Assembly: GCA_032372955.1 (NCBI GenBank)
Contig: GCA_032372955.1_4725.1
DNA length: 64,000 bases
Source of the DNA: Escherichia coli
GTDB taxonomy: Bacteria > Pseudomonadota > Gammaproteobacteria > Enterobacterales > Enterobacteriaceae
Direction: 5' to 3' (one strand)
This document shows positions 3,301-60,014 of the stretch, piece by piece. The position numbers were made by a program, and so were the translations under genes. The number at the start of each line of letters is the position of its first letter. The stretch's first letter is position 1. The notes under the pieces are model-generated. The model searched no databases and was not told where the DNA came from. It saw only the letters and a list, made by a program, of their open reading frames with translations.

Positions 3301-3309
3301 CAGCATATC

Positions 3310-3341
3310 CCCTCCTCCTTCCCTGTTGGGTTGGAGGAGGG
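3310..3341. terminator. GC-rich hairpin CCCTCCTCC/GGAGGAGGG between convergent genes, followed by T-rich tract; likely bidirectional terminator
   Basis: perfect 9-bp inverted repeat 3310-3318 / 3333-3341. Confidence 0.5.
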
Positions 3342-3351
3342 TTATGTTTGG

Positions 3352-4632
3352 TTATTTGTTTTTCTGACTGGAATCGATCAATTCGAGCTTGTGTACTGTC
3401 TGCAACGTCGCATGCGTTTCCAACCAGACCTGGTGAAGATAAGGCGTATCGTTAAGCCGCTTAACGCGCGTATGTTTGTACAACGTATTTTCAAACAACA
3501 TGTTCTTACGAAGTCCCCAGCGCGAGTGAAGTACCCATAACGGTTTTTCATAGGTCTGCACGTAAGCTGGTAACTCGCCGAGATCGGCTCGAATCAGTCC
3601 TTCCGGTTTCTTACCTAAGAAATACTGTCCTGGTACACCACTTCGTGGTAAAGGTTCTTGTGTAACCTGAATCGATGTTGCTTTGATGTACACCCAGAAA
3701 CTGCAAGGATGCGTCACCCACGCTTTCAATGCTTTATCAGACAATAAACGATTGGCAACAATGTCGGACTGTGGGTCTTCTTCGTTCAACAGAATACCAA
3801 GAGATGTTAGATCAAGGTATTTGCGGGAACGGAAGTATCTTTCATAGAGAAACATGTTAATGCAGTTTATTTTCGCTGTCGTGTCGCTAACGATCGTGTA
3901 ACAATCGTCAAGAAGATGTAAATATCCCCCGAACACCAGCGCGACGGTTTCATCTTCGGCGACCTTGCGCGGTAGCCGTAAATACATCTCGTCCTTATAC
4001 GGCAAGAGCTTCGTGGAATCAGCGATCATCTCTTCTGTGATAGCATGGATTTCCAAACTCCCGATACGGCTAAAATCAATCATACCGATATCGTTTTCTT
4101 GGCCACGCTGTGCTGTCTTGAACCCACCTTGGATATAGACACCAACGTCTTTACCGTAAACGTGAGGATGGACATAACCGCCTACGGTGAACAAGCAGTG
4201 TTTGCCGATATTTTCGTAATTCGTATTCGCTTTCGTCAACAGGATATCAGTGCGTTCCGACTCGGGAATCGCGTTGCTTGGATGATAGCCACTATTACCG
4301 ACTTTAGGGAGAAAGCCTACCGTAATAGCGTCATGACAATAAAGCTTGTGGGTTTTAATCGACAGCTCGCCAGGCTGTCCACGAAGGTTAGTATGCGCAT
4401 CCGATTTCGCTTTCAACCACGCATTGAGTGTATCACTGCTGTTTTGAAGCTCGGATTGAAATGTGTACAGATCAATAACTTGTTGCTGGTCAGCATAGCT
4501 TTCATGGACCTGGATCTTGAGTTTTTGATACGTTGAGAACAACGTACTCAGGACACTTTCACCCGCCTCAAGCGCTGTCCAGGCCGTGCCAGAACCCACG
4601 GGTAATCCGTAAGTTTTTACCAATGTATACAT
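3352..4632 (-). CDS. hypothetical protein
   Basis: 426-aa ORF on minus strand; GGAG-type RBS context upstream of start. Confidence 0.5.
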   Translation of the reverse strand: MYTLVKTYGLPVGSGTAWTALEAGESVLSTLFSTYQKLKIQVHESYADQQQVIDLYTFQSELQNSSDTLNAWLKAKSDAHTNLRGQPGELSIKTHKLYCHDAITVGFLPKVGNSGYHPSNAIPESERTDILLTKANTNYENIGKHCLFTVGGYVHPHVYGKDVGVYIQGGFKTAQRGQENDIGMIDFSRIGSLEIHAITEEMIADSTKLLPYKDEMYLRLPRKVAEDETVALVFGGYLHLLDDCYTIVSDTTAKINCINMFLYERYFRSRKYLDLTSLGILLNEEDPQSDIVANRLLSDKALKAWVTHPCSFWVYIKATSIQVTQEPLPRSGVPGQYFLGKKPEGLIRADLGELPAYVQTYEKPLWVLHSRWGLRKNMLFENTLYKHTRVKRLNDTPYLHQVWLETHATLQTVHKLELIDSSQKNK

Positions 4633-4686
4633 GGGAGAGGCCCCCTTATTTTATAGTTACAGTAATATTTTACCGCTGTTAACACA

Positions 4687-4704
4687 GGATACCCCAGGGT
4701 ATCC
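4687..4704. promoter_or_regulatory. perfect palindrome GGATACCC-CA-GGGTATCC in divergent intergenic region; candidate operator
   Basis: 8-nt arms with 2-nt spacer between divergent starts at 4632 and 4737. Confidence 0.3.
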
Positions 4705-4736
4705 CATACTTACTAACAACTTGTAAAGGGCGCATC

Positions 4737-6890
4737 ATGACAGATGAAATTAAACGCCTTCCGTATAACCCGCAGGGGAATTTGGATGGCGCATGGGTTC
4801 CAGAAGAACCCGTCACTGTCCGTCCTTCCACGGGGACCGGATTTAACTTTCTCGTTCCTAAATACGCGCCATATTTTCGTAATGGGTTAAAGATCTACAA
4901 CCCTGAAACAAACGCGTATCTGGAAGAAGGCGTTGACTTTTTATGCACTCACCCCTTCCGTGCCATGGCTGCGCTGACCGGCCTGGAATTATACGGTTCC
5001 ATCATGCTGTTGGACACCGCATTCAGTGGACAGTTGCAACTGAACTACTATTCACTGGGGGGTGAGTTTACACTTGATCAACAACAAATTCTTAACGTTT
5101 TAGCCAACAACCTCTACGACCCCCGCGTTACGTTCTGGGAAAAGGTTGCTGACGTTCCTTCCGTATTCCCGCCAATCAACCACCAACATAATGTCGAAAC
5201 CGACACAATGACGTGGGACGATGTGGTGGCGGCAATCGAATCATTGAAAGAACCGCTTGAAGAAGGGTTCAATAAAGCAATGACCGCATTGCTGCAGCAC
5301 GAGAATCGTCGCGATAACCCCCATGGCGTAACCAAGGCTCAAGTTGGATTGGGGAATGTTCAGAACTTCACAACGGCGACCGAGAGCGATCTGGAAACCA
5401 TCGGTGAAAATCTGTACATGACGTTGGCGATGACGCGTAAGATGATCGCTAACCTGAGTGGTGATAGTGCTGCTGCACACATCAGCAACTACAACAACCC
5501 ACACAAGGTAACTAAAGCCCAGGTGGGACTCGGAAACGTTGAGAACTACGGTACAGCCGATAGTAATGCAACCATTACCGGTACGGCCACAAATCTGTAC
5601 ACAACACCAGCGGGTGTACGTGCGGCAATCAAGGCGATCACGGACGGCTTAAGTACGCGCATCGATCATGTCAACGCTGCGTTAACAACCCATACCGGGG
5701 ATAATAACAACCCTCACGCTGTTACGAAAGCACAGGTAGGACTGGGGGACGTACAGAACTACGGTGTGGCGTCTAATGGGGAAGCCGGTGCAGGTGTTGC
5801 TAACAACAAATACATGACGCCCGCAACCACAGCAGCCGCCATCGCAGCGTTAATCACCCCAACCGTAACCGAACATATCGGTAACACCAACAACCCACAT
5901 GGGGTGACCAAAGCCCAAGTCGGTCTGGGAAGCGTGCAGAACTTTGGGGTTGCTACTACCCAAGAAGCTATCGACGGTCAGGCTAACAACAAGTACATGA
6001 CACCAATACTTGTTCGTTACGCGATCGAGCAAATGGCTGGTCAAGGGTTCAGTAGTCACATCGCAAATACCGAGAACCCGCACCAAGTATCTAAAGCACA
6101 GGTAGGGTTGGGGAGTGTTGAAAACTATCCTGTCGCTTCTGATGTGGAAGCACAAACAGGTGTAGCGACCAACCGCTATATGACACCGGCTGCGACAAAA
6201 GCGGCAATCATCGCTTTAGCGGGTGATGGTTTTGCGGCACACGTTGTCGATAAGAGCAACCCGCATGAAGTAACAAAATCTCAAGTTGGGTTAGGGAACG
6301 TACAGGACTTTGCTGTCGCCACCGACACGCAAGCTGCCGACAAGACTAACCAGACGACGTACATGACACCGTACTCGACTTACAAGTCAATTGCGGCGTT
6401 TGCGGCGTTAGCCGATCATACGCACACAGCCGAACAAGTCGGTGCGCTCCCCATCAATGGGGGTAAGTTAACCGGACCAATCGATCTTTCAGCAACGTCT
6501 ATCACGGGTACCGGACTCGGTATCGATGGTGCTAATGGTTCAATCAACGTCAATAAGTTGACCATCAACCAGCTTCTGGAAGCTTACGGTGGCATTGAAT
6601 CCAGTGATACGATTAAAATCCTGAACGACGATGAGACGCCCGCTAACTTCCTTGCCGATGGCGATCTCGAAGGGATCAAATGGGTTAACATCAACAGCCA
6701 AGAACCTGGAGAGAACCAAGACGGCGAGAAGATGCAGAAGATCGGTAAGCTGAGCGATTACCTTAAGAACGATTATTTAACCAGCTTGAAGACGAACACA
6801 GCGTTCCGTGATGTCTTCCAAGCACTGCTTAGGGAATTCCTTGCTAACTTCAACGCGGTTATCAAAGCAACCGACTTCGAGACGTTATAA
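4737..6890 (+). CDS. tail fibre protein with six tandem NPHxVTKAQVGLGNVxN[YF] repeat units
   Basis: 717-aa ORF; six copies of the repeat; N-terminal region and repeat shared with 10577..12625. Confidence 0.7.
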   Translation: MTDEIKRLPYNPQGNLDGAWVPEEPVTVRPSTGTGFNFLVPKYAPYFRNGLKIYNPETNAYLEEGVDFLCTHPFRAMAALTGLELYGSIMLLDTAFSGQLQLNYYSLGGEFTLDQQQILNVLANNLYDPRVTFWEKVADVPSVFPPINHQHNVETDTMTWDDVVAAIESLKEPLEEGFNKAMTALLQHENRRDNPHGVTKAQVGLGNVQNFTTATESDLETIGENLYMTLAMTRKMIANLSGDSAAAHISNYNNPHKVTKAQVGLGNVENYGTADSNATITGTATNLYTTPAGVRAAIKAITDGLSTRIDHVNAALTTHTGDNNNPHAVTKAQVGLGDVQNYGVASNGEAGAGVANNKYMTPATTAAAIAALITPTVTEHIGNTNNPHGVTKAQVGLGSVQNFGVATTQEAIDGQANNKYMTPILVRYAIEQMAGQGFSSHIANTENPHQVSKAQVGLGSVENYPVASDVEAQTGVATNRYMTPAATKAAIIALAGDGFAAHVVDKSNPHEVTKSQVGLGNVQDFAVATDTQAADKTNQTTYMTPYSTYKSIAAFAALADHTHTAEQVGALPINGGKLTGPIDLSATSITGTGLGIDGANGSINVNKLTINQLLEAYGGIESSDTIKILNDDETPANFLADGDLEGIKWVNINSQEPGENQDGEKMQKIGKLSDYLKNDYLTSLKTNTAFRDVFQALLREFLANFNAVIKATDFETL

Positions 6891-13682: not shown

Positions 13683-14225
13683 TTAGCCAACAACGCTAAC
13701 GGTCGGTTTCACGAAGCCATCAGCTACGTTATCCGCCAGAACGGTTGCCAGGTCATCTTTCGGTGCAGCTGCGTAGGTCAGTGCAACCTGCAGAGTGCCG
13801 GTATATACCAGGCCATTCTCGATCGCATTCAGAGTTACCTGACCAACAGTACCTGCAGACAGCTGGAAGGTTTCTTCATTGATTTCACCGGTCAGGGAAG
13901 CCAGACCGAATTTGGTGACCAGCTTGCTTACCAGCTCGGAAGCCTTAATGCTGTCGGTACCGTGCGGCAGTTCGAAAGTAACATCGCCAGTTACATCAGC
14001 GAAAACTTCGGACAGAGCCAGACGATCGTAGTAGAACTGCTGAGTACCCTGCAGGTTAGCTGCTTCAGCTGCAGCATCCAGCTGAATAACGGTGTTCTTT
14101 TCATGTTCGGAAGACGTCTGCGGAGTACCGAACTGCAGTTCTTCTTCGGTCAGCGTGCGGGTTGCTTTGGTGTTGATAAGATCAAGCAGAAGGGATTTCG
14201 CTGCTTTGTTAAAGTCTAAGGCCAT
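13683..14225 (-). CDS. hypothetical protein with host-optimal codon usage, probably highly expressed (structural?)
   Basis: in-frame ATG at 14225 preceded by AGAGGA RBS; the ORF-track start at 14324 is probably an over-extension. Confidence 0.5.
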   Translation of the reverse strand: MALDFNKAAKSLLLDLINTKATRTLTEEELQFGTPQTSSEHEKNTVIQLDAAAEAANLQGTQQFYYDRLALSEVFADVTGDVTFELPHGTDSIKASELVSKLVTKFGLASLTGEINEETFQLSAGTVGQVTLNAIENGLVYTGTLQVALTYAAAPKDDLATVLADNVADGFVKPTVSVVG

Positions 14226-14366
14226 GATAATGTGTCCTCTGATTTTTGATGGTCGAAAAGGAGATTCGGAGTCGTTCTCCATAATATTTACATTAATATA
14301 AAATATATTAATTTCTGTAAACACTTACATCTTTTGAGAGTGATGTAACAACCATAGAGGTAGAAA

Positions 14367-15260
14367 ATGGCAACTCAAGTTTCGCTTACTTTAAAAACAC
14401 CTTGGCAACTTATCGTTGATGAGATTAACAAACTCAACGCCGACACTGGTGCCAGCTTCCAATACACCGACCTTAAATACGTTCTTAAAGAAAAGAATCC
14501 TTCTGCTCCAGAAGCAACTTTAACGCTTAGCCCTGGTGATGGTACCCCTTACTTCAATAACCGTGATGTTACCTACCATCGTCTGGATCTGGCTAAATGG
14601 TTCCAGAAAATCGCTGTACGTGTTAACGTTACTGCTGACACCACCATCGGTGATGTGGTTGACCTTGTAGCTCAACGCTACGGTATGATCACACCGACCG
14701 GTGAGAAGTTCCTGGATAAAGATAAAGACATCAAAGCCGATACGTTATCTAATCCGGTTACCTTCAACGAGCATGGTATCCAGACGATCACCCTGGAAGC
14801 TAAAGAAGATTCGTTGGCGTGGTACGGCTCTGTTCAAGTTAAAGTTTATAACACCACGCTGGATCTGGCTAACATCATCAAGGTTACCAATCTGGGTAAC
14901 TTAACCTACGTTGATGAAGGCGACGGCACCAAAACGTCAGCACGTCTGTTAACCTATCCGTTAGACTTCAGTACTTACACCGCAGGTTTACAAGCTATTA
15001 CCAGCAACGATACCAAGATCGATGCAGGCTTAGCAGGTAACCTGACTACCCTGATCAAAGAGCAGACTGGTGTAAGTGATGATATCATCAATGAACTGAA
15101 AACCAATCTGCAAACAGCTACCTTTGTCTATAACGGTGCTACCACCGGGTCTACTGACAAAGGTGTTAACGCTACGTACAGCAATGTGCTGGTGCTGTCG
15201 TTAGCTGACGGTACTCACACCTACGGTAAAGCAGTATTCGGTTATAACGTTTCCGAATAA
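14367..15260 (+). CDS. hypothetical protein, LAWYGSV paralog family member with strongly optimal codon usage
   Basis: 297-aa ORF; GAGG RBS; motif LAWYGSVQV; codons dominated by CTG/GGT/CGT/AAC/TTC. Confidence 0.55.
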   Translation: MATQVSLTLKTPWQLIVDEINKLNADTGASFQYTDLKYVLKEKNPSAPEATLTLSPGDGTPYFNNRDVTYHRLDLAKWFQKIAVRVNVTADTTIGDVVDLVAQRYGMITPTGEKFLDKDKDIKADTLSNPVTFNEHGIQTITLEAKEDSLAWYGSVQVKVYNTTLDLANIIKVTNLGNLTYVDEGDGTKTSARLLTYPLDFSTYTAGLQAITSNDTKIDAGLAGNLTTLIKEQTGVSDDIINELKTNLQTATFVYNGATTGSTDKGVNATYSNVLVLSLADGTHTYGKAVFGYNVSE

Positions 15261-15276
15261 TTTTAATTAATCTCTC

Positions 15277-15308
15277 CCTTCCTCCTTCCCTGTTGGGTTG
15301 GAGGAAGG
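15277..15308 (+). terminator. hairpin CCTTCCTCC/GGAGGAAGG, near-copy of the 3310 element, followed by TTTATGTTTG
   Basis: 9-bp perfect stem, 14-nt loop. Confidence 0.5.
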
Positions 15309-15475
15309 TTTATGTTTGTGATTATTCTTCTCTTTTATAATTTCTAATGATAAGATTAAGTACCTGGAGTAAAAGTTTACAGATGTTGTAAATGTATTTG
15401 GAAAGTAAAATTTCCACGACCTCGGCCCCTTCGGGGGACGGGGGAGGAGCGAAGTCCTTTAGAGACGAGCAACAG

Positions 15476-15542
15476 GATAACTCTAAGAAAAAGAAAAACT
15501 AAACGAGCGAAGCGAGTTTATGTTTTTATCCTTAGAGTTATC
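15476..15542 (+). other. long inverted repeat (12-bp perfect arms GATAACTCTAAG / CTTAGAGTTATC) enclosing an A-run/T-run interior; candidate structured RNA or protein-binding site
   Basis: direct reading of the sequence in the non-coding hub. Confidence 0.35.
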
Positions 15543-15995
15543 AAGCTATAAGCGTAGCGTTAGCGTATAACGGTTATGTCGTATACGAATGCAATGAGTA
15601 TAGACGAGATACTCTGATGAACAACGTGAAGAAGAGTATCACAAATGTTTTTTGAGTTATCCGGATTTAACTAGCATGTAACGAAGTGTAATGCACAGAT
15701 GACATGTGTTACCGTTAAGGTAGTAAACACATGTTATCCATTGTTTTGAAGATAAGCTTATTAACTTACTTTTAAATCAATTTAAATATACAAACAACTT
15801 AAACATACCAAGATAAAACAATTGAACCTAAGATAAACAAGATAACTTAGACAATACACTTTTAACGAATACAGATAACATCTTACTTAAATCAAAATAC
15901 CTATCCTCGTTTACCTTCCTTGCTTGCAACACCTCTTCTAAATCCATCCCTTCTTAAGAAACAACAAAACCCTTACTGTAACACAAATCCTTTCA

Positions 15996-16015
15996 CGACT
16001 ATATTACCTAAGTGA
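15996..16015 (+). promoter_or_regulatory. phage-specific promoter-like element CGACTATATTACCTAAGTGA (copy 1 of 3)
   Basis: 23 of 25 nt identical to the copy at 28497..28520; lies about 85 nt upstream of the first early-type gene. Confidence 0.45.
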
Positions 16016-16097
16016 TGCGTACGTACGATGTTCGTATTGCGTCAAATAGAACTCAATACGTTGTTTAATTAACGTGAAAAACAGAGGAACTTTTTAA

Positions 16098-16880
16098 ATG
16101 AACGATGAAATCATTTTTGATACCATGTTTACTGGAGATGAATACCTGGCGTTACCGAGCGATGTTCAAAACGAATGCGTGAAGGTAGCATGCTACAGCG
16201 GCGGTCAGGCTGGGATGCGTGTACGTTGCGTTGACGGGACGAACGGGAAAGTTGTTTGGCGTGGTGCTCACACGTACCCTTACCTGCTTACCGGCAACAA
16301 GAATTGGTACGCTCATCGCAGCCAGCATCCTGCACGGATGAGCGCGAGCGGATTCGTGGTACGTGGTGCGTTGGATGAACGGGTGGAACGCATCGAGATC
16401 ACCGATCGCGCGTTCATCGATCAGCTTGCACAGGTTGCTTACGATGAGGGACGTGCAACAGGGCGATACGGTTGGTTGAAGGTGAACAGCGATACGCAAT
16501 TACAGGTAGGATTCCATCACGCGCTTCCTGGGTGGGCGAACCATACCGTTGGAACGTATTACACCAAAAAGCTTACCATGGTGAAACCTTACATGGCGGA
16601 TGCGAGCTTGGAGGCAACGGATCAGATGCATCAATTGCTTCGCATGTATTATCCACGGGTGGTGCATCCACTTGGGTTCGCTTGGGTCAGCGAAGTGCGC
16701 TACAACCCACGCAAGAAACGCGTTGAAGCGAAGGTGCTTAACGAACGTTGGTTACCGGTTGTGCAACCAGGGCTTGACGATGAATCCATCATGATGCGGG
16801 TAAGCCGAAGCCGGTTCGTACAATGGGATGCTACCATGCTACAACGCCCACAACACGTTACAGGAGAAACGTTCGCATGA
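16098..16880 (+). CDS. hypothetical early-type protein
   Basis: 260-aa ORF; GAGGAA RBS. Confidence 0.5.
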   Translation: MNDEIIFDTMFTGDEYLALPSDVQNECVKVACYSGGQAGMRVRCVDGTNGKVVWRGAHTYPYLLTGNKNWYAHRSQHPARMSASGFVVRGALDERVERIEITDRAFIDQLAQVAYDEGRATGRYGWLKVNSDTQLQVGFHHALPGWANHTVGTYYTKKLTMVKPYMADASLEATDQMHQLLRMYYPRVVHPLGFAWVSEVRYNPRKKRVEAKVLNERWLPVVQPGLDDESIMMRVSRSRFVQWDATMLQRPQHVTGETFA

Positions 16881-17176
16881 TACGCGCAACAGGATACGAA
16901 AACAAAGGCAAGAACAGCGTGCAGCGTTACGTTGCCGACGAGGAAGGGAAAGCAGAATACCTGGATTGGTTCAACCGTTACAGCGCAAGCAAGGTACGTG
17001 ATCCTAGCATCCTGAGGTTACAGAGCAGTTTCCAATGGCAGGCTTCCGAACAACGCTGGTACATCACGTTGGAAATCGGAACGGTACGGGAAGACCAGCT
17101 TCCTGCATACTTAAAAGAACAACGGGAGCAGATCAACACATTACTCGCACAACACAAAACGGAACCTAAACCTTAA
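16877..17176 (+). CDS. hypothetical protein
   Basis: ATGA start/stop overlap with previous gene; the ORF-track start at 16823 is probably an over-extension. Confidence 0.45.
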   Translation: MIRATGYENKGKNSVQRYVADEEGKAEYLDWFNRYSASKVRDPSILRLQSSFQWQASEQRWYITLEIGTVREDQLPAYLKEQREQINTLLAQHKTEPKP

Positions 17177-17216
17177 TCCAACACCAACAAGCGAAAAGGA
17201 AAGTACAACAGAAATC

Positions 17217-17492
17217 ATGTTGATGAAACCGACAGCAAAGAACAAGGTTTATAAAGCAATCTACGCGTCAGACACAGTCAGCCTGACGAAGATCATCAAA
17301 TACAAACTTGAGAAGGTGCTACGTGTTGAACCGAGCATAGGCTTAGTCCGTTATCGCCTGATTACCGAGAACGGTGAAGGGTATTACGCACCGTCGTCTC
17401 GAAGCGATAACGCCGTTGTGTTAACCCGGGATGTGGTTGAAGCAATCAACAACGGAACGAAGGCGTTCTACGCGCACAGAAAAGCCGTATAA
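17217..17492 (+). CDS. hypothetical protein
   Basis: 91-aa ORF. Confidence 0.45.
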   Translation: MLMKPTAKNKVYKAIYASDTVSLTKIIKYKLEKVLRVEPSIGLVRYRLITENGEGYYAPSSRSDNAVVLTRDVVEAINNGTKAFYAHRKAV

Positions 17493-17569
17493 CGCAATAA
17501 ACGAATCCAAAGAAGGGAAACTATACCTTAACTTAAAACGACGCTTAGAGAGCGTTACAGGAGCTTAGA

Positions 17570-17977
17570 ATGCAACATGATCAAACGAACACCACCGCAA
17601 CGTCAATAGCCCTTGCCGATGCCGTCCAGGCGTGGAACGAGAACCCAGCCTGTCGAGCAAAGATGGAATTGGTGTACGAAGGATCAACCCGTGTCAGGAC
17701 GGCTGATGATGTTCTGGTCGTACGAGGTGAATTCTTCGCCTTAGGTGTCACGGACCGTGGTCCGTTAGATGCGCTTTGGATCGAGTTACAAACCTGCCCG
17801 CAGAGACCACGCTACGTGACCCGTGACCATCGTCCTGAGAACGCGTTGGTCGGAACCGGTTCCGTGGATATTTTCATCTGGCAGGATACCCTCGACAACA
17901 TGAACAAGATGATCGACGTTGAGAACATCGTTGCAAATAAGTTAACCCAACTTAAAGAACGTCTGATGCCGCTATAA
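17570..17977 (+). CDS. hypothetical protein
   Basis: 135-aa ORF; AGGAG RBS. Confidence 0.5.
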   Translation: MQHDQTNTTATSIALADAVQAWNENPACRAKMELVYEGSTRVRTADDVLVVRGEFFALGVTDRGPLDALWIELQTCPQRPRYVTRDHRPENALVGTGSVDIFIWQDTLDNMNKMIDVENIVANKLTQLKERLMPL

Positions 17978-18053: not shown

Positions 18054-18089
18054 GTTACTATCATCAACCACTATCAAGAGGAACCTACC

Positions 18090-18533
18090 ATGGAAATTAA
18101 ATTCTGTAAATCGATCGCGATTGTACCTGAACAACCTGCGGATGATCTCGAAAAGCTCGATCATCCCACACTGCAACATGCGCTGGAACGTTTAGCCTCT
18201 TTTGCGCCGTTAGAGAATCATCTTCACTGCGTTAATCTTGAAGCATCCGACTTCGACGTGAAGCTTGGGTTCGTGTTTTCACAAACGGGGAAGGATGTGT
18301 TAGAAAACATATTCTGGTCTGCTGAGCATAAGGCGAGAAATGTGATGACGAAGTTAGTTTATAACGTTAGCCTTAGTGAAGACGGCACCTATTGGACGTC
18401 AGAGGCTTGCTGGACGATTTCTGCGATTTCACGAATGGACAAAATACACTATTTGCATCGTGTTGCTGATAGCATTGTACACCAACTGGATCGTTTTGAT
18501 ACCACCCGCTTATCGAATGGAACACAGTGTTAA
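18090..18533 (+). CDS. hypothetical protein
   Basis: 147-aa ORF; AGAGGAA RBS. Confidence 0.5.
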   Translation: MEIKFCKSIAIVPEQPADDLEKLDHPTLQHALERLASFAPLENHLHCVNLEASDFDVKLGFVFSQTGKDVLENIFWSAEHKARNVMTKLVYNVSLSEDGTYWTSEACWTISAISRMDKIHYLHRVADSIVHQLDRFDTTRLSNGTQC

Positions 18534-18548
18534 TACGAGGAATCGAAC

Positions 18549-18977
18549 ATGCAAATTAAATGGCCTGAATCAGCAGTAACTGCAGCGCGCGTTGGTCTTT
18601 ATCATTCGCTGGTTGCTCAGCATACCAGCTTACATCGCACCCTATCACTTTTACGCGAAGACGAAAAACTACGTGAACACATTCAGCCGATCTCAGCATC
18701 AATGAATGCGAACACGTTGTCTATGCGTTGCGTTCGATTGACTTTTGTGTGTACCACGTTAGGAAAGACGTTGCTTGAGGCTGCCTATCTTCGTTGTTGC
18801 GAAAGCACGACGTTCACCGACGATATGGTGTTGTCGATCGAGATGTATTGTCAGACAAATGGAATACGTCAACCGCAGATAGTTTGGAAAATATACGGAT
18901 TGACACCAAAAGTAATCAGCACGAAGTTAGATGCGGTTGCTAATAGCCTTAATGAAATTTTGAAAGAAGGAATTTGA
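18549..18977 (+). CDS. hypothetical protein
   Basis: 142-aa ORF; GAGGAA RBS. Confidence 0.5.
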   Translation: MQIKWPESAVTAARVGLYHSLVAQHTSLHRTLSLLREDEKLREHIQPISASMNANTLSMRCVRLTFVCTTLGKTLLEAAYLRCCESTTFTDDMVLSIEMYCQTNGIRQPQIVWKIYGLTPKVISTKLDAVANSLNEILKEGI

Positions 18978-19837: not shown

Positions 19838-19853
19838 TAAATAAACCATAAAC

Positions 19854-19888
19854 CTTCCTTCCCCGGCCTTTACGGCTAGGGAAGGAGG
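19854..19888. terminator. C-rich/G-rich hairpin between convergent genes
   Basis: CCTTCCTTCCC ... GGGAAGGAGG, followed by a T-run at 19902-19909. Confidence 0.4.
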
Positions 19889-28496: not shown

Positions 28497-28520
28497 CACG
28501 GCTATATTACTTAAGTGAAG
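28497..28520 (+). promoter_or_regulatory. phage-specific promoter-like element CACGGCTATATTACTTAAGTGAAG (copy 2 of 3)
   Basis: near-identical to 15991..16015; about 20 nt upstream of ATG 28542. Confidence 0.45.
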
Positions 28521-31026: not shown

Positions 31027-31040
31027 GCTTGACGGCATAA

Positions 31041-31072
31041 CCCTCCTCCAACCCAACAGGGAAGGAGGAGGG
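31041..31072 (-). terminator. hairpin CCCTCCTCC/GGAGGAGGG, exact reverse complement of the 3310..3341 element
   Basis: 32-nt identity to the element at 3310 in inverted orientation. Confidence 0.5.
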
Positions 31073-53053: not shown

Positions 53054-54520
53054 ATGGCTAAAGTCAGAGAGCCGTTTAATATTAGCATTTTGCGCCTCGA
53101 TAAACAGCAGTTACGTTTTCTCCCCAAGATCACGAGCATGAGCATCCGTGACCCAAGCACCGGTAATTTCCACGATGATGGTTTCTATTCTTACACCATC
53201 TTTGGTAGTGCGGGTAGTGAAGATCGAGACCGTCGATTTGCGGTGATCGAATGCAAGGTTGAAATCCTACACCCCGTCATTTACGACCGCCTCATTCGAC
53301 TAAAACACCTCTATGGCGATATCATGTCGGGGAAGGCGTACGCTCGGTGGGATCCTGAACAACGCGACTTCGTTGCGTCTGATGCGTTAACAGGACAAAC
53401 AGGATACGGGTTCTTTGCACAACACGTCGCGGATATCAAGTTCGTTTCAACGGGTTCAGCTCAACGAGAGCTACGAATTAAAGTTGTCGAAGAGAACATG
53501 TTCAAAGCGATGACCCGTCACTTACTGGTATTGCCTGCGGGCTTACGCGAAATAGAAGTAAAAGAAGGCGGGTATGAAAGCGAGCAAGAAATCACGGAGT
53601 TGTATCGTCGTTTCCTTGCAATTTCTAACACCGTCCCTGATGGATTAAAAGATTATTCTGATCCCGTTTACGACGGTCAACGTTGGAGCTTACAGAGAAC
53701 ATTTAACGATATCTACGCTTTGTTGTTGGATATGTTCCAAGGTAAGAAAGGGATCTTCCAAGGTAAGTTCGGTTCACGTCGCGTTTGGAACTCAACCCGT
53801 AACGTTATTTCGGCAATTAACCCCACAACAGAGGTACTAGGGTCGCCCAACCAGCCTTCCTGTACCGCAGTTCAGTTAGGGTTATACCAGATGAGCAAAG
53901 CCGCCCTACCCGTGACGCAACATGCGTTACGTACGGGGATTTTGCAGGAAATATTTGTCCGTGATGTTACAGAAGTTGAACTTATCGATACCGAAACGAT
54001 GGAACGTGAACGTGTCACGCTTGATCCAGACACCATCGATGACTTTACAACATGGGACGGAATAGAACGTTTATTGAACACCTTAAGCGATCCTGGTGTA
54101 CGTAACGAACCCATCATGGTTAATGGGCGTTATCTTTGTCTCGTCTATGTGAACAATGATTCGTTTCGGTTATTCCGTGGTATGAGTGAATTACCCCCGG
54201 AGATGCTGAATAAGCCTGGTGCGGATGTTCACCCCATCACGTACACCGAGCTTATCTATATTGCCGGATATAAGTACTGGAATAACCTGGCTGCGATGGT
54301 AACACGTTATCCGGTATCGGGTATGCAATCCGTTATCCCGTTAACCTGTTACGCGCGTACAACCGTTGCAGCAAAACCGAAAACCGAACTGGATAGTAAC
54401 TGGGAACCAATAACGGATGAACGATTTATCGCATGGGAATACCCCGACTGGTTACCTAATGCCTCGTTCGTAGAAACTACTATTGTTCCTGCGCCATACC
54501 TCGCCGGTTTAGGCGGTGAT
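53054..54520 (+). CDS. RNA polymerase beta-prime-like subunit, N-terminal module, exon 1 (predicted 3' boundary)
   Basis: AAGAGGAG RBS; beta-prime-like segments ELYRRFL and GKKGIFQGKFGSRRVWNSTRNVI; boundary placed after U54520 by homology and frame. Confidence 0.6.
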
Positions 54521-55002
54521 AAGTCCTTGAAAAATAAAGACTTTTTTCAATGGAAGTTGTCCGGTATTCCCGAAAGGGAGTGCTTGAAAAACCTACGAAT
54601 TGCTGGGAACCCCTAAAGCTCAACGACCCATGAGGTGCCGAAAGGCAGAAACAACAGTTGAGATGCACTACCTCCCACGGAGGCTTAGGCTGAAAGAAAA
54701 GCCGCGTAAGCGGTGCTAAGGTGCGCGATAATGGGCAATCAGCAGCCTGGTTGTTGCGTAGTAATACGGCATTCTTGAAAACAAGAATGTGAAACAACGC
54801 AGGTTCAACGACTAAGGGATTTACCACCCTGTAGAGGACAAGCGTCTTCGAAGTGTAGGTTACCGTAACAGGTGTTGCTGAAGTATTCTTCAGCGAAGCT
54901 GACGGTTTGATATAGTCTCCTCTTGCATGAAAGTGCAAGCAGCCTGTGATGTACGTATCCATGCAGGCGGTCTCAGCGTAGCGACCTGAGGCGAAGACAA
55001 GG
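54521..55002 (+). ncRNA. group I intron (ORF-less), intron 1, boundaries predicted
   Basis: Q-like AATCAGCAGC 54737-54746, R GTTCAACGACTAAGGG 54793-54808, S GATATAGTCT 54909-54918, P8-like hairpin CTTGCA/TGCAAG; flanked by two halves of one conserved protein motif. Confidence 0.7.
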
Positions 55003-55185: not shown

Positions 55186-58100
55186 ATGGCAAAACTTAAA
55201 TACCTTGATTACTACCGACAGTTTGGTGTCAGACGCTACCAAGAGCTACTATCACCAAGATTACGTTTAGTGCAGCTACTGCAGCTGCCGCGTTATGCTG
55301 TCTATCATTACACCGCAACGGATCCTTCATTGATAGGTCCTCCAGAAAACGAATACATGCTGAGCAAAGAAAGTGCTCAACTATGGATTTCGTTTGCTGA
55401 TGATCTCGCAACCAAACAGGGTGCACCCCGACGTGATCAACGATTCCAACTCCCACGAGCGAAATTGGATTATCGTGCATCACATCGTCGTTTTCGTTTG
55501 GTTACCGATCTAAGCGCGGTGGAGAAAAACATCAACGCTCAGATCGTTGCTAACTACGCGCATCTTAACCACATGTACATTTATCGTCCAACGCTCACCC
55601 GTTGGTATGATGAATGGTTCAACGTACGTAAAACAATTTGGTCGAAAGCCAACGAAATCGCACAGCAAAGCGATCGTCAACACTTTTTGTTGTTCCGTAT
55701 ACCGTCAAAATTGCCGAAGATTTCGTTGATGCGTACCACGCAACAGGCACCGACCCGTAACAACCTCATGAATTTCGCCACGCCGGAGGAGCTGTCGTTC
55801 TTTGACTTCTTCCGCTGGTTGGGCGTCGATCGTGAGAACAGCACGATGGCTTCGTTAGACAGGGCCATGCTGGATAAGCTTAACGTCGTATTTACAGACG
55901 GTGTGTACTTCTTTACGCTGAATCTCGGCCTGCTGGAGGAATGGCGTACCGGACTTGTGAAGGAAGGGGAAGAACTCGATAAAACGACGCTTGAAACCTT
56001 CCAACGACGTTGGATGATGGCGGTAACACGTCTGTGGTCGCAGAGTGCGAATGAAGAAGAACAGAAACAAGAAGAGGAACAGGTTCTTCGTCAAGAGCGA
56101 GATATTCTTGCAGCCAGCCCGGATGCGGAGTACGATGATCGTGACGTCGTGCTTCCTAACGGTGAGGATCTGGCTACCGTTCTCGATCCCGATGAGTTAG
56201 AAGCGGAGTTGGTCGGTGGGTCGGATGAAGACGATGATGCTGATGCATGGAACGCCATCGTAGAACGCTCGTTCGAAGATGTCCGTGAAGTACCTGGGGT
56301 AGAAGTACAACCGGATTTCCAACCTGATGAAGATCAGGACATTACCGACGATCTCTTCGAAGTCGTTACCGACGATACCGAAGAAGAAAAGGTTGATGTC
56401 TTTGACGCGGCAACGTTACCAAAAACGCATGGCGAATATATTCAGTCGCTATCGGATGCGGTGTTGGTACGCGCGAGTGATCTGGCGGATGCGGGTCAGT
56501 TAAGCGGTGTCCAGTATAAAGCAGCGATGCGTAACGCCGACGCCATTCACGAAATCGAAGCACCCGACGGTTCTGGATTAACACTTGCTGAGTATGTCGA
56601 AGTTAAACCAAAAGCCGCAAAATTAGCTCCCGCAAAGGTTATGCCGGAAGCGGATGTTATCGTCGACAAGAGCTTATGTAAATCGACGCTCGCGGTGTGG
56701 GATAAACATTACGTCGAACACGTAATGCAAAAGGACATCGCAGCTGCCGTTGTTGCGGTACAGCAGGCGGGTTACCCTGTTACGGGATATAAAGTTGAAG
56801 ATGTTGTTGACGTGATGGGGGACTATCAAGTCATCACGATTAAACTGGCCCCTGTAGGCGGTGTCCCGACCACGTTCCCGGTGATGTTGCCGAAGGTTCG
56901 TAAGGACGGCATTTATGTCGTTAACGGTATCAAGTACCGGATGCGTAAACAACGCGTCGATAAACCTATTAGAAAGGTATCGTCATCTGAAGTCGCATTG
57001 AGTACCGCCTACGGTAAGGTGTTTGTTAAACGTTCAGAGCGCGTCGTTAATAACGCCGGTCGTTGGTTAACACGCCAACTTACGGCGATGTATTACGATA
57101 AGTCCTCGCCCTTAACAACGTTAAAACGCGGTAACGTCTTTGATCCGGCTGTCAAAGTTCCGTATTACTTCGCTGTGCTTGCACGCAACTATACCCAAAT
57201 CCAATTTGCTGATTGGGATATACGTCTCGATATAAAAACATTGCCGGAGTTCATCGGGGAAGATCGGTTCAACGAACAGTTAGCCGAAGGACTCCTGACG
57301 TTCGCGCGTAACACGTTGGGTGAATTCTTAGCAATCGATAAACGCAATCAGCTCTATATCTGTCAGTCGGGACAAACACCAACACCTGTAGGGACGTTCC
57401 CTGATTTCTTCGGCATTAATGCGGCTAAGATGCCGATCGAAGCCGCCGATCTTGAATTCATGGGTGTACGTATTCCGGTCGGTGTTGTTCTAAGTTATCT
57501 GGGTGGGCTTACCCCGTTATTAGAACATCTTAAAGCGAACTATCGTACGGTACCTCGCGGCTCTCGTATGGGGTTAGCACCCGATGAATTCGCAGTGAGC
57601 TTTGACGACGAAAGTCTGATCTTCAGTAAAGACGATCGCATGACGACGTTGTTGCTGGGTGGGTTTAACGAATACCGTAACTACATTGGTTACGCTCGCG
57701 GTGCTTTCGACAATCGAGATATCTATTTTAACGTTGTTGATGGTGCTGGACTTAAGGTTCGCCATTTGCGCGAACTTGAACTCATGGAGCGTCTTTTCAT
57801 CGATCCGGTAAGCCGTACGTTGTTGCAGAACATGGGAGAACCTACCGATTTCGCCATGTTGTTACTGCGTGCTGTTGAACTGCTTCTGGATGATTGGGCA
57901 CCTAACACGAACGATGTGAACTACCAACGTTTTAAAACGTACGATAAGTTCGCTGAATTGGTGTATAAGGACCTGGTTGGCGCTATTCGTCAGAATGAGA
58001 ACAGCAGTCAAGGGAACCGCCAGAAAATCTCAATCAGTCCGGTAAGCGTCTGGAACCAAATTCTCGACGATAGCGCTTCCATCGTGATCGATGAAACCAA

Positions 58101-58335
58101 CCCGATGCTGGATATCAAGCAGGGTGAAGAAGCAACGATGACCGGTATCGGGGGTCGTTCAAAGACATCGCTTCGACGCGCACGTGATCGCGAATACGAC
58201 AAGTCGGACATTGGTGTTGTATCCGAAGGTACGAAGGATAGTGGGGACGTAGGTATTTCTGCTTACCTCGCACCTAACGCAAACATTGTGTCTGTATACG
58301 GTGAAACGAAACCTTACGACGAGAAAACGGATGGT
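55186..58335 (+). CDS. RNA polymerase beta-like subunit, N-terminal module, exon 1 (3' boundary approximate)
   Basis: ATG 3 nt after the beta-prime stop; C-terminal part DETNPM...TGIGGRS...RRARDRE...SEGTKDSGDVGISAYLAPNANIVSVYGETKPYDEKTDG parallels E. coli beta DQNNPL...LGPGGLTRERAGFEVRDVH...[36 protein letters not shown]. Confidence 0.55.
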
Positions 58336-58874
58336 AGCTCGTCAATAATGAGTACATCAGCACTTGCAGTACCTGCTGCTGATAGAGATGATTAACGCTT
58401 TTAATAGCAGGGTCCGTCTATGTGGCGACATGTAGATGAGATTCACTGAATTGCGAAGACATCCGTCGCTGTTATCGACCAAAACGGATTCTGAAAAGAA
58501 AGACGGTACGGTATAAAAACAGATAATAGCTTAAGGACAATCCGCAGCCAAGTACCTAAGGATCGCTGTGAAGCGTTCTAAGGTAAAGGTTCAACGACTA
58601 AGGGATTCATCCCCCTGTACCCCTCGAGTGAGGCATTCTCCTTGGATAAGAGAATGGTGCTGGATGCGCTGGGAAGAAGTGAACTCTCGTTGAGGTGCTG
58701 AAGAAGCACCGTTTGAAACGAGATGTGATATAGTCTGCTCTTGCGTGAGAGCGCAAGCGGGAGGTGGTGCGCCTATCATCGCCTCCGGGATAAGACTAAC
58801 GACCTTATCTGAACAATCTAATCTCAGTCTTATTTCGGTAACGGTATGTTAATACTGAATAAGAACTAAATTCG
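58336..58874 (+). ncRNA. group I intron (ORF-less), intron 2, boundaries approximate
   Basis: P-like AATTGCGAAG 58449-58458, Q AATCCGCAGC 58539-58548, R GTTCAACGACTAAGGG 58589-58604, S GATATAGTCT 58727-58736; homologous to intron 1 with a compensatory change in the P8-like stem. Confidence 0.7.
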
Positions 58875-60014
58875 CCCAAGAGATTGGTATTTATAGGTAT
58901 CCAACACAACCGCATGATTGCTGCTGAAGGTTACGATGTACAGCCGTGGCGTACGGGTGGTGAGACTGTTATCGCGCATCGTGTTGGTAAGCTCTTCGCA
59001 GCAGCTGCCCAAGGCGATGGTGTTGTGAAGAAGGTCACTAAAACTGCGCTGACGATACAGTACGACGACCCAGAGTTAGGGGAAGAGGTTTTCCAGCTCG
59101 GTACGATAATCGGGAAAGGACCAGGTAAGTATTATCCTCACGATCTCATTACCGATTATAAAGTCGGGGATCGCGTTAAGGATCAGGATGTGGTGGTTTT
59201 CCACCGCCTTTATTTTAAACGCGATTGGTGGAACCCAGGTCAGGTTGTTTGGCGCGCAGGTGTTCTGTCTCTTGTCGGTATTCTGGATATTCCAGAGACC
59301 CACGAGGACAGCTCGTATATCTTCGACAATCTTGCTGATCGTCTCGTAACACCATCGATTAAGAGTCGTACGCTTATCGTTGACGCTCATCTCAACATTC
59401 GTGGTCTCGTGAAAATCGGTGATCATGTTGAACCGCGAACGATTCTTGCAACACTGGAAGAACCGATTGCAACCGATCTGAGTGATGAGAGTCAGGAAGC
59501 CGTTGAAGCATTACGTCGTATGAGTCAGTATAACCCACGTGCTGATGTTCATGGTGAAGTTGTACAGATCGATGTACTGTACCGCGCTCAGATTGAAGAC
59601 ATGAGTGAAACCATGGCAGCGCTCGTCGGTGAGGCAGATAAAGCACGAGCTAAACGCGTCAAGGAACTGAAACTCAACGAAGCAACAACGGGGCGTATCA
59701 ATAACAGTAACGTGAGAATAGACGGTAATCCGTTAGGCGAGAACCAGATCGCCATCCGTATTTTCATGCGTTACGACCTTGGTGCGGGGATGGGTGATAA
59801 AGGTACCTTCGCAGCTCAAGCGAAATCCGTTGTCTCTTCCGTGGGTCATGGTGTGAACAAAACCGAAGACGGGCACACCCTTGATGCTATCTTCAGTGGC
59901 ACCAGTATCGCTAACCGTATCATCGGTTCACCGGAAGTGGTTGGGACTGTGAATCTTGGTCTCCTCTACGCAACGGAACGAGCTGTTGATATTTACTTTA
60001 ACGACGCTAAATAA
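58875..60014 (+). CDS. RNA polymerase beta-like subunit, exon 2 (5' boundary approximate)
   Basis: open frame extends upstream of the track start (TTG at 58884) to 58863; IGIQHNRMIAAEGYDV parallels E. coli beta IHYLSAIEEGNYV directly after the TDG motif. Confidence 0.55.
   Translation, partial: PKRLVFIGIQHNRMIAAEGYDVQPWRTGGETVIAHRVGKLFAAAAQGDGVVKKVTKTALTIQYDDPELGEEVFQLGTIIGKGPGKYYPHDLITDYKVGDRVKDQDVVVFHRLYFKRDWWNPGQVVWRAGVLSLVGILDIPETHEDSSYIFDNLADRLVTPSIKSRTLIVDAHLNIRGLVKIGDHVEPRTILATLEEPIATDLSDESQEAVEALRRMSQYNPRADVHGEVVQIDVLYRAQIEDMSETMAALVGEADKARAKRVKELKLNEATTGRINNSNVRIDGNPLGENQIAIRIFMRYDLGAGMGDKGTFAAQAKSVVSSVGHGVNKTEDGHTLDAIFSGTSIANRIIGSPEVVGTVNLGLLYATERAVDIYFNDAK

Follow-up and report, generated by a model that had tools for sequence, protein, structure and literature searches.

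The largest gap without open reading frames (ORFs) in a 64,000-nucleotide (nt) stretch of DNA from Escherichia coli (GenBank assembly GCA_032372955.1, contig GCA_032372955.1_4725.1; hereafter the window) is a spacer at positions 15261-16097, within which we identified an ultraconserved, hairpin-rich block at 15349-15653. Judged from the alignments and searches presented here, the block is an unannotated structured element that is confined to Goslar-like phages, falls into no known family and sits at a switch in strand asymmetry. We consider it a candidate structured noncoding RNA (ncRNA) and/or + strand DNA hairpin array. Our preferred but tentative reading, to which we grant somewhat less than an even chance, is that the spacer is a compound hub in which the block and an adjoining AT-rich stretch act as a replication origin, with a late terminator on the left and an early promoter on the right. 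An original prediction, made from the sequence of the window, had described the spacer as a transcription boundary and possibly an origin of replication or a small-RNA locus; all of the features that it listed are present at or close to where it placed them, but the block, the main feature, had gone unrecognized.

Conservation and structure of the block

The window derives from a Goslar-like E. coli chimallivirus, with a 91% match between positions 15100-16300 and Escherichia phage vB_EcoM_Goslar (NC_048170) and a 94.3% match, in reverse orientation, across positions 1-31065. Goslar, a nucleus-forming jumbo phage of the Chimalliviridae, carries the equivalent of the block at ~15,432-15,736 on the minus strand of NC_048170, inside a gap between gp022 and gp021 that its record leaves unannotated (14,972-15,825). 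The spacer of the window encodes no ORF of >=40 amino acids (aa) and, at 837 nt, is the biggest gap present; it had been described as the only large ORF-free stretch, which is right as to its size but not as to its being alone, the second-biggest gap (569 nt) being a group I intron and the remaining gaps measuring <=336 nt.

In a comparison with Goslar alone, the left half of the spacer shows no differences (100% identity), an observation that is not decisive since other perfect patches exist between the two phages, and the claim of conservation therefore rests on a comparison of four Goslar-like genomes and then of 12, the larger set following a screen in which a 21-mer of the block, run against metagenome and genome collections, recovered eight further Goslar-like copies. 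In the four-genome alignment, 298 consecutive nt (15349-15646) are free of substitutions, against a runner-up invariant run of 80 nt in 12.9 kb and 79-96% invariant columns in the flanking structural genes. Identities to the window were as follows:

Block 15349-15647, ten genomes: 99-100%
Block, genome L029: 91%
gp022 gene: 83-96%
gp021 gene: 74-94%

Similarity breaks off sharply at the T-run 15648-15653 in all 12 genomes, and the sequence to the right of it is rich in insertions and deletions. On the evidence of these alignments, nothing else found in this part of the genome is as constrained as the block.

Among the collections searched, the block occurs only in Goslar-like genomes. A blastn search of a phage collection returned no relatives of the spacer apart from Goslar, and the spacer has no similarity to complete E. 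coli genomes (blastn, near and distant modes) or to PLSDB plasmids. A search of 14000-17500 against Rfam (Rfam 15) gave no match at E <= 1, the whole window at the Rfam gathering threshold yielded only two group I introns, both outside the spacer, and a tRNA/tmRNA search found none in the spacer. A small protein gene was rejected as an explanation: no ribosome-binding site precedes the longest ORF in the block (36 aa), and its protein sequence is not conserved in L029, where 3 replacement and 2 synonymous changes fall within 9 codons and instead follow the pairing of the hairpins.

Folded as RNA, the + strand of 15310-15760 reaches -126.8 kcal/mol (z = -6.6) and the - strand -100.7 kcal/mol (z = -4.7), a difference of 26 kcal/mol in favor of the + strand. 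The block folds into a series of local hairpins:

15349..15653, + strand: hairpin-rich ultraconserved block, the core element, ending in the T6 run 15648-15653
15375-81/15387-93, + strand: hairpin H1, GTTTACA/TGTAAAT, holding a fixed G.U pair that is possible on the + strand only
15400-04/15411-15, + strand: hairpin H2, GGAAA/TTTCC
15420..15443, + strand: hairpin H3 with a C(UUCG)G tetraloop (loop 15430-15433), CCCC-TTCG-GGGG at 15426-15437
15476-15487/15531-15542, + strand: outer stem H5, a perfect 12-bp inverted repeat, GATAACTCTAAG/CTTAGAGTTATC
15494-15508/15512-27, + strand: inner hairpin H6 inside H5, AAAAAC-TAAAC-GA-GC[GAA]GC-GA-GTTTA-TGTTTTT
15564-73/15579-87, + strand: hairpin H7
15589-90/15594-95, + strand: mini-hairpin H8 with loop GCA, the site of the clearest covariation
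15608-15/15633-40, + strand: hairpin H9, with the final T6 run 7 nt from it

The tetraloop hairpin and the perfect 12-bp inverted repeat of the original prediction, the former placed at about 15424..15438, correspond to H3 and H5. A G-rich tract lies at 15434-15448. H6 forms a terminator-like module of A-tract, hairpin and T-tract, with tandem G.A pairs and a GAA triloop.

The few substitutions in the block cluster in hairpins and mostly preserve pairing. The sole change in H1 and H2 falls in the loop of H1 (15384 T>C, in L029). In H3 of the same genome, pair 15421/15442 has changed from C-G to U-A, which is compensatory, pair 15422/15441 has changed from U.G to C-G, and the loop at 15430-15433 reads CGAA in place of UUCG (TTCG), yielding a C(GAA)G triloop. 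The H5/H6 composite (15476..15542) is invariant in the 12 genomes save for the loss of C15542 in L029. Within H8, pair 15590/15594 has gone from U-A to C-G in L020, L023 and L029, and pair 15589/15595 from A-U to G.U in L020 and to G-C in L029, while loop position 15592 is changed in L029 and L032, the loop in L029 turning from GCA into GAA. When the local-hairpin structure was scored, 99.9% of cells were paired and 3 pairs (5 cells) varied on both sides, a result matched by 0-1 of 500 shuffles. An alternative long hairpin proposed by RNAalifold (15546-15603) accounts for the same substitutions in the H8 region via G.U wobble, and a long-range RNAalifold helix joining 15313-15320 to ~15640-15646 was discounted, being broken in L020, L029 and L034. 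Whichever hairpin model holds, the pattern of substitutions indicates that a single-stranded fold is under maintenance.

Only the + strand has the fixed G.U pairs, the tandem G.A pairs (C-GA-GC[GAA]GC-GA-G) and the UUCG loop, which suggests that it functions in single-stranded form, as either RNA or single-stranded DNA (ssDNA). UUCG is an RNA-type motif, and GAA triloops closed by a C-G pair are unusually stable in DNA. The sharp 3' end at the T-run, together with the internal A-tract/hairpin/T-tract module at 15494-15527, favors a predicted rightward transcript of ~300 nt, possibly accompanied by a form of ~180 nt.

The small-RNA locus of the original prediction gains support from the extreme conservation, the sharp T-run end and the compensatory changes, any function being conjectural, and these same features would be expected if the block were simply a stand-alone gene for a structured ncRNA of ~300 nt (or ~180 nt plus read-through) with a role unrelated to replication, for example in regulating phage or host expression, in binding a protein or the ribosome, or in countering host defence. 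We regard this explanation, the main rival of the compound origin, as somewhat unlikely. The internal A-tract/hairpin/T-tract module and the + strand-specific G.U and G.A pairs and UUCG tetraloop are in keeping with it, while the block matches no Rfam family, has no identified promoter and, by blastn, shows no complementarity or similarity to E. coli. Hairpins with a GAA triloop closed by C-G are reportedly, from work by Hirao et al. in the 1990s on such mini-hairpins, unusually stable in DNA rather than in RNA. A stand-alone ncRNA gene would also leave unexplained why a switch in strand composition and the AT maximum of the genome, both described below, coincide at the spacer. Other chimalliviruses do express small RNAs of unknown role (PMC11512511; PMC13282480), and the block resembles those of 201phi2-1 (sRNA005) and phiKZ (the small RNA upstream of gp182) in being conserved, structured and noncoding, in intergenic or 5' regions (PMC11512511). 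The latter, at <250 nt, come from 5' untranslated regions that precede a tail gene and show conservation between genera (PMC11512511), whereas the block follows a virion gene, spans ~300 nt and is found only in Goslar-like genomes.

Strand composition and the case for a replication origin

For skew analysis the full 237-kb Goslar genome was assembled, in which the spacer is the largest ORF-free gap. The raw cumulative GC skew, a check suggested with the original prediction, gave only a slope change, and we therefore turned to a direction-corrected measure at third codon positions (GC3). Each gene's top-strand skew was modelled as the sum of a gene-direction effect and a regional effect whose breakpoints were left free, both for all positions and for GC3; in both cases the breakpoints fell at the 16-kb grid point and at 98-104 kb, and for GC3 none of 100 permutations performed as well. 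The regional shift of ~0.13 has the same sign in both orientations, from +0.009 to -0.129 for + genes and from +0.099 to -0.024 for - genes, with non-overlapping bootstrap intervals. Because it is equal in sign and size for both gene orientations, the shift marks an effect of the DNA strand and not of the coding strand. The direction-corrected cumulative GC3 skew reaches its global minimum directly after gp021, at the spacer, and its maximum at 103.4 kb, and in this corrected form the suggested check does single out the spacer. The window alone reproduces the shift. When only the 34 annotated late/virion genes are considered, the effect is retained, at -0.106 [-0.15, -0.07] for genes that point toward the spacer versus -0.022 [-0.06, 0.01] for genes that point away from it. 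The leading strand is usually G-rich; if that applies here, the spacer would be the origin and ~103 kb the terminus. The second switch, the global maximum, lies in a 205-nt spacer between gp091 and gp092 (Goslar NC_048170 103,396-103,600), which is not AT-rich, contains no GATAA array and is a possible replication terminus.

The right part of the spacer supplies the second element of this reading:

15698-15710/15726-15738, + strand: second inverted repeat, ACATGTGTT...AACACATGT, a variable and dispensable hairpin
15740..15900, + strand: AT-rich stretch with an (A)AGATAA direct-repeat array, GATAA at 15751, 15812, 15832, 15841 and 15874

The A+T content is 65% for the gap as a whole, compared with ~52% in the other gaps of the window, and 65-69% for the spacer. 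The density of GATAA in the spacer is 3.1 times, and that of AAGATAA 21.6 times, the value for the rest of the window (4 of 18 window copies of AAGATAA), and four copies of TTATC, the opposite orientation, lie upstream of the array (15526, 15538, 15657 and 15734). In Goslar, no 200-nt windows are richer in A+T (75%) than those of the orthologous stretch, and nowhere in the 237-kb genome is AAGATAA more densely clustered. We suggest from this composition that 15740..15900 is possibly a DNA-unwinding region. Two general hallmarks of origins are found together in Goslar, namely, a strand-asymmetry switch that is independent of gene orientation and an AT-rich, easily unwound segment.

Conservation of individual repeats follows a different course. 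The five GATAA copies (expected within 15760..15880) and the second inverted repeat (15702..15735) that were central to the predicted origin are present as sequence, yet among the 12 genomes the ACATGTGTT hairpin is missing from four (L006, L029, L032 and L034), the number of GATAA copies ranges from 2 to 8, AAGATAA is absent from L029, and the distance from the end of the block to the promoter varies from 110 to 432 nt. An origin argued from these two repeats consequently finds no backing in the relatives, which show both to be absent or variable; indirect support comes instead from the skew switch and from the spacer being the largest and most AT-rich gap in Goslar, an origin function itself being conjectural.

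Repeats of this kind could also mark a site on duplex DNA that serves another process, such as headful packaging (pac) or docking and partition, and that is bound by a phage protein. A large, conserved, repeat-bearing noncoding region in a circularly permuted genome would suit such a site, as would the opposed orientations of GATAA and the clustering of GAGTTATC/GATAACTC, with 3 copies within 185 nt versus 4 in the whole window. The repeats are, however, the least conserved part of the spacer, and the strand-specific G.U and G.A pairs and compensatory changes favor single-stranded structure over a protein site on duplex DNA. With the terminase gene lying far away (Goslar gp222 at 189.5-191.8 kb) and the skew switch unexplained by a pac site, we consider this explanation very improbable.

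Returning to the compound origin, we hypothesize that the spacer runs, from left to right, from the terminator of the late virion unit through the ~300-nt hairpin module and the AT-rich repeat stretch to an early promoter of the virion RNA polymerase. The + polarity module would most likely be transcribed rightward into a structured ncRNA that ends at the T-run, and the same hairpins would also arise in displaced + strand DNA. Block and AT-rich stretch would jointly constitute the origin: an RNA polymerase entering or crossing the structured module would melt the AT-rich DNA beside it, and either the RNA made or the hairpins would prime the replisome or bring it onto the DNA, much as in the transcript-activated origins of T4 (oriF/oriG), T7 and ColE1. 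In a bolder version, replication in the phage nucleus would be licensed or primed by the block as a structured RNA, or RNA/DNA hairpin module, of a new kind, through a transcript-dependent mechanism driven by the multisubunit RNA polymerase of the phage, and the spacer would be the first defined origin of a nucleus-forming jumbo phage; we rate this version as rather unlikely.

Several observations weigh against the compound origin. With DNA energy parameters both strands of the block fold significantly, and RNA and ssDNA cannot be told apart; the covariation stems mainly from one diverged genome (L029) and one mini-hairpin, and most pairs never vary. Candidate start signals for the block are limited to a conserved TATG (15311-15314) and a variable TATAAT-like hexamer (15336-15341). 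The skew effect is smaller within the late genes and uneven along the genome, also inside region A, where it is strongest at 16-31 kb; it may be confounded by the spacer also being the boundary between late and early genes, and the "away" gene class may include middle genes. The same skew test was not significant in phiKZ (45/100 permutations) or in SPN3US (78/100), though in the latter the direction agrees. A search for DnaA boxes (TTATNCACA) found a single 1-mismatch site in the spacer and 47 sites in the window versus 58.8 expected, hence no enrichment, and Pfam and PHROG searches recognized no initiator gene nearby, among the eight downstream ORFans; an initiator too unfamiliar in sequence to be recognized may be one of them. 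The repeats, at 5-7 nt with irregular spacing and variable number, differ from classical iterons, which are ~17-22 bp, regular and conserved. The AT-rich array is largely missing in L029 and variable elsewhere, and it is therefore not a set of essential iterons.

As the results for phiKZ and SPN3US make plain, the skew test does not find origins everywhere, and the Goslar result does not generalize. The best breakpoint in SPN3US is at ~6 kb, next to the largest noncoding and most AT-rich stretch of that Salmonella chimallivirus. This stretch (SPN3US JN641803 239,883-240,413 plus 1-1,185) spans the junction of the record, includes the most AT-rich 200-nt windows and parallels the layout in Goslar.

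A 2025 survey found raw GC skew uninformative in nucleus-forming jumbo phages, with no typical replication pattern (PMC12625630), and reviews from 2025 and 2026 mention no replication origin for these phages (among them PMC13282480). A strand-specific Goslar RNA-seq time course (5-60 min) was analyzed per annotated gene only (Armbruster et al., bioRxiv 10.1101/2023.09.20.558163). Against this background, the locus is a precise and cheaply testable candidate for an origin and/or a structured RNA, the first concrete one for this phage group, in an E. coli model phage for which RNA-seq time courses, Cas13-based knock-down (dRfxCas13d, CRISPRi-ART), antisense oligomers and microscopy are already available. 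Should the block prove to be the core of an origin or an RNA essential to the phage, Goslar-like phages could be engineered through it, host defences that are directed at RNA and so get around the protein shell could target it, and it would serve as a metagenome marker for Goslar-like genomes, eight of which the 21-mer newly recovered. Were it just a structured RNA serving some other purpose, no sequence found in its part of the genome would be more constrained.

The transcription boundary

Both ends of the spacer carry signals of recurrent families, and these and the flanking genes are listed here:

15277-15290/15295-15308, + strand: terminator-type hairpin of 9 bp, a 2x2 mismatch and 3 bp, loop TGTT, with a T-rich tail TTTATGTTTGTG to 15320
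15991..16015, core 15999-16007, + strand: candidate early (virion RNA polymerase) promoter, TTTCACGA-CTATATTAC-CTAAGTGA
14367..15260, + strand: upstream flank, a late virion structural protein gene, ortholog of Goslar gp022 (92% aa identity)
16098..16880, + strand: downstream flank, ortholog of Goslar gp021 and first of eight small ORFan genes

With a member of a terminator hairpin family on the left, after a late gene, and a member of an early-promoter family on the right, ahead of the small-ORFan block, the spacer is well supported as a real boundary between a late terminator and an early promoter, and here the original prediction was borne out most fully.

The product of the upstream gene matches Pfam DUF7941 (E = 1e-50) and phrog_1037, "virion structural protein." Synteny could not be traced through gp022, and this route was dropped: the gene belongs to a paralogous family with <=28% identity outside Goslar-like phages. 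Pfam and PHROG searches gave no match for any of the eight downstream genes, which we presume to be early genes. Within this ORFan block, two segments (17142-17803, 662 nt, and 18088-18551, 464 nt) are 100% identical to Goslar, while neighboring genes differ by 5-10%. Neither is invariant in the four-genome alignment, and such patchy, mosaic conservation perhaps reflects recent recombination.

The predicted terminator hairpin is present 3' of the virion gene as a member of a recurrent family, with further copies in the window at 3308-3343, 31039-31069 and ~19847, two of which are labelled as terminators in the Goslar annotation. A strict terminator scan missed it because of its 2x2 internal mismatch. 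By eye, both 15277-15308 plus TTTATGTTTGTG and 15494-15527, which ends in TGTTTTT, resemble intrinsic terminators, the strict scan having found none owing to internal mismatches; sigma-70 promoter and terminator scans returned fewer hits than shuffles and are hence uninformative. The copies at 3308-3343, 19847-19861 and 31039-31069 consist of a CCTTCCTCC...GGAGGAAGG hairpin that is each time followed by (A/T)(A/T)TATG on one strand, and this hairpin-plus-TATG unit is a recurrent module. Just 3' of the terminator hairpin in the spacer, the TATG at 15311-15314 is kept in 12 of 12 genomes despite adjacent insertions and deletions. T(-3)ATG(+1) is the late-promoter motif of phiKZ (PMC7598289).

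At the right end, the promoter-like sequence of the original prediction is confirmed as CTATATTAC at 15999-16007, one of a family with about 9 intergenic copies in Goslar that share an extended consensus, all of them co-oriented with a gene whose start lies 32-124 nt downstream; for chmA, which encodes the nuclear shell, the distance is 73 nt. Exact copies of the CTATATTAC core in the window at 28502 and 41622 each stand directly upstream of + strand blocks of small genes, and the motif is retained in every relative whose sequence includes that part. Early promoters of chimalliviruses have been defined by a conserved AT-rich motif of ~10 nt upstream of early operons, near position -10 (PMC7598289), and a recurrent AT-rich core upstream of such operons is what we find; 15991-16015 is probably an early promoter of the virion RNA polymerase, as judged from its recurrence and placement. 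The likeness to the early promoters of phiKZ, 201phi2-1 and AR9 (PMC7598289, PMC11512511) extends to a ~10-nt AT-rich core, conserved flanks and a location upstream of early blocks that include chmA; unlike theirs, the consensus here is specific to Goslar-like phages, and the comparison covers 15991-16015 and not the block.

These signals raise the question of whether the spacer is purely a transcriptional boundary, with the block as a structured 3' untranslated tail or a set of back-up terminators insulating the late from the early unit, the AT-rich stretch as an upstream element of the early promoter and the skew switch as a change of gene class. The terminator hairpin directly upstream, the two hairpin-plus-T-run modules within the block and the early promoter at the right end all fit this explanation, as do the unevenness of the skew effect, its partial tie to gene class and the lack of signal in phiKZ and SPN3US. 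Terminators and tails, however, do not normally need 300 invariant bases while neighboring structural genes vary by 4-17%, and other copies of both the terminator hairpin and the early promoter in the window do without such a block. Moreover, genes of both orientations shift in skew with the same sign, and the late class on its own still shows the shift. We therefore judge a boundary and nothing else to be distinctly improbable and retain the compound origin as the preferred, if tentative, reading.

Known systems and minor observations

The closest parallels for the compound origin are the transcript-activated origins, T4 oriF(uvsY) and oriG(34), the T7 primary origin and ColE1 RNA II. The likeness lies in a noncoding region, in a phage with its own RNA polymerases and in a putatively transcribed segment that adjoins an easily melted AT-rich stretch; the ColE1 primer is, in addition, also a long, highly structured and sequence-constrained RNA. 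Goslar gp190 is annotated as RNase H. There is no sequence similarity to any of these origins, the promoter of the block is only a candidate, an R-loop is only hypothetical here, and the AT-rich part, unlike theirs, is variable in length and almost gone in one relative. The T4 and T7 origins also differ in being without a 300-nt conserved structured module.

Origins based on iterons or DnaA boxes (lambda, P1, plasmids and bacterial oriC) share with the spacer its AT-richness, short motifs in opposed orientations and a switch in strand composition; they differ from it in that the repeats here are 5-7 nt, irregular, variable in number and dispensable, with DnaA boxes not enriched and no recognizable initiator. 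Single-strand initiation signals and the very stable d(GCGAAGC)-type mini-hairpins of phiX174/G4-type origins offer a further parallel, since several C(GAA)G or GC-GAA-GC triloops lie on one strand here, two in the window and four in L029. Those signals function in single-stranded DNA of phages or plasmids together with the primase of the host, whereas the block also has the RNA-type UUCG loop.

Two group I introns were detected elsewhere in the window, both on the + strand. One, at 54535-54939 (64.1 bits), has no ORF here because the window lacks a counterpart of the HNH-like gp206; the interval of Goslar corresponding to window positions 54520 to 54559 measures ~1.57 kb and includes that ORF. 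The other, at 58391-58757 (Rfam RF00028, 52.8 bits), splits the gene for a virion RNA polymerase beta-like subunit into ORFs at 55186-58395 and 58884-60014. In Goslar the corresponding site measures just 25 nt and gp207 is uninterrupted, showing that the phage of the window carries an extra intron.

Exact copies of the 21-mer AACGAGCGAAGCGAGTTTATG from H6 (AAC-GA-GC[GAA]GC-GA-GTT) turn up in unrelated contexts too, at a frequency slightly above the chance expectation for a 21-mer. Its carriers include human-gut Clostridia-type, Rhizobium and soil contigs (L016, L018, L019, L021, L022, L025-L028, L030, L031, L033 and L036-L038), and in the gut contigs it is placed between a TAA stop and an ATG. 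We also considered as a homologue a 235-kb AT-rich phage contig that shares the 21-mer (L011) and rejected it, as it has no other DNA or protein similarity. Given this dissimilarity and the occurrences in Clostridia, Rhizobium and soil contigs, we treat the 21-mer as a recurrent hairpin and not as a sign of homology; it may be a very stable hairpin reached by convergence. L011 (IMGVR_UViG_3300046005_000547, 234,735 bp) has an ORF-poor gap of 2.1 kb at 4610-6720. The first part of this gap is rich in hairpins and ends in the same 21-mer (4994-5014), after which come three copies of a long direct repeat that have TTAAGATGGATTATTGGACAAATAATGGATG in common. By analogy, this gap may be a control or origin region of its own.

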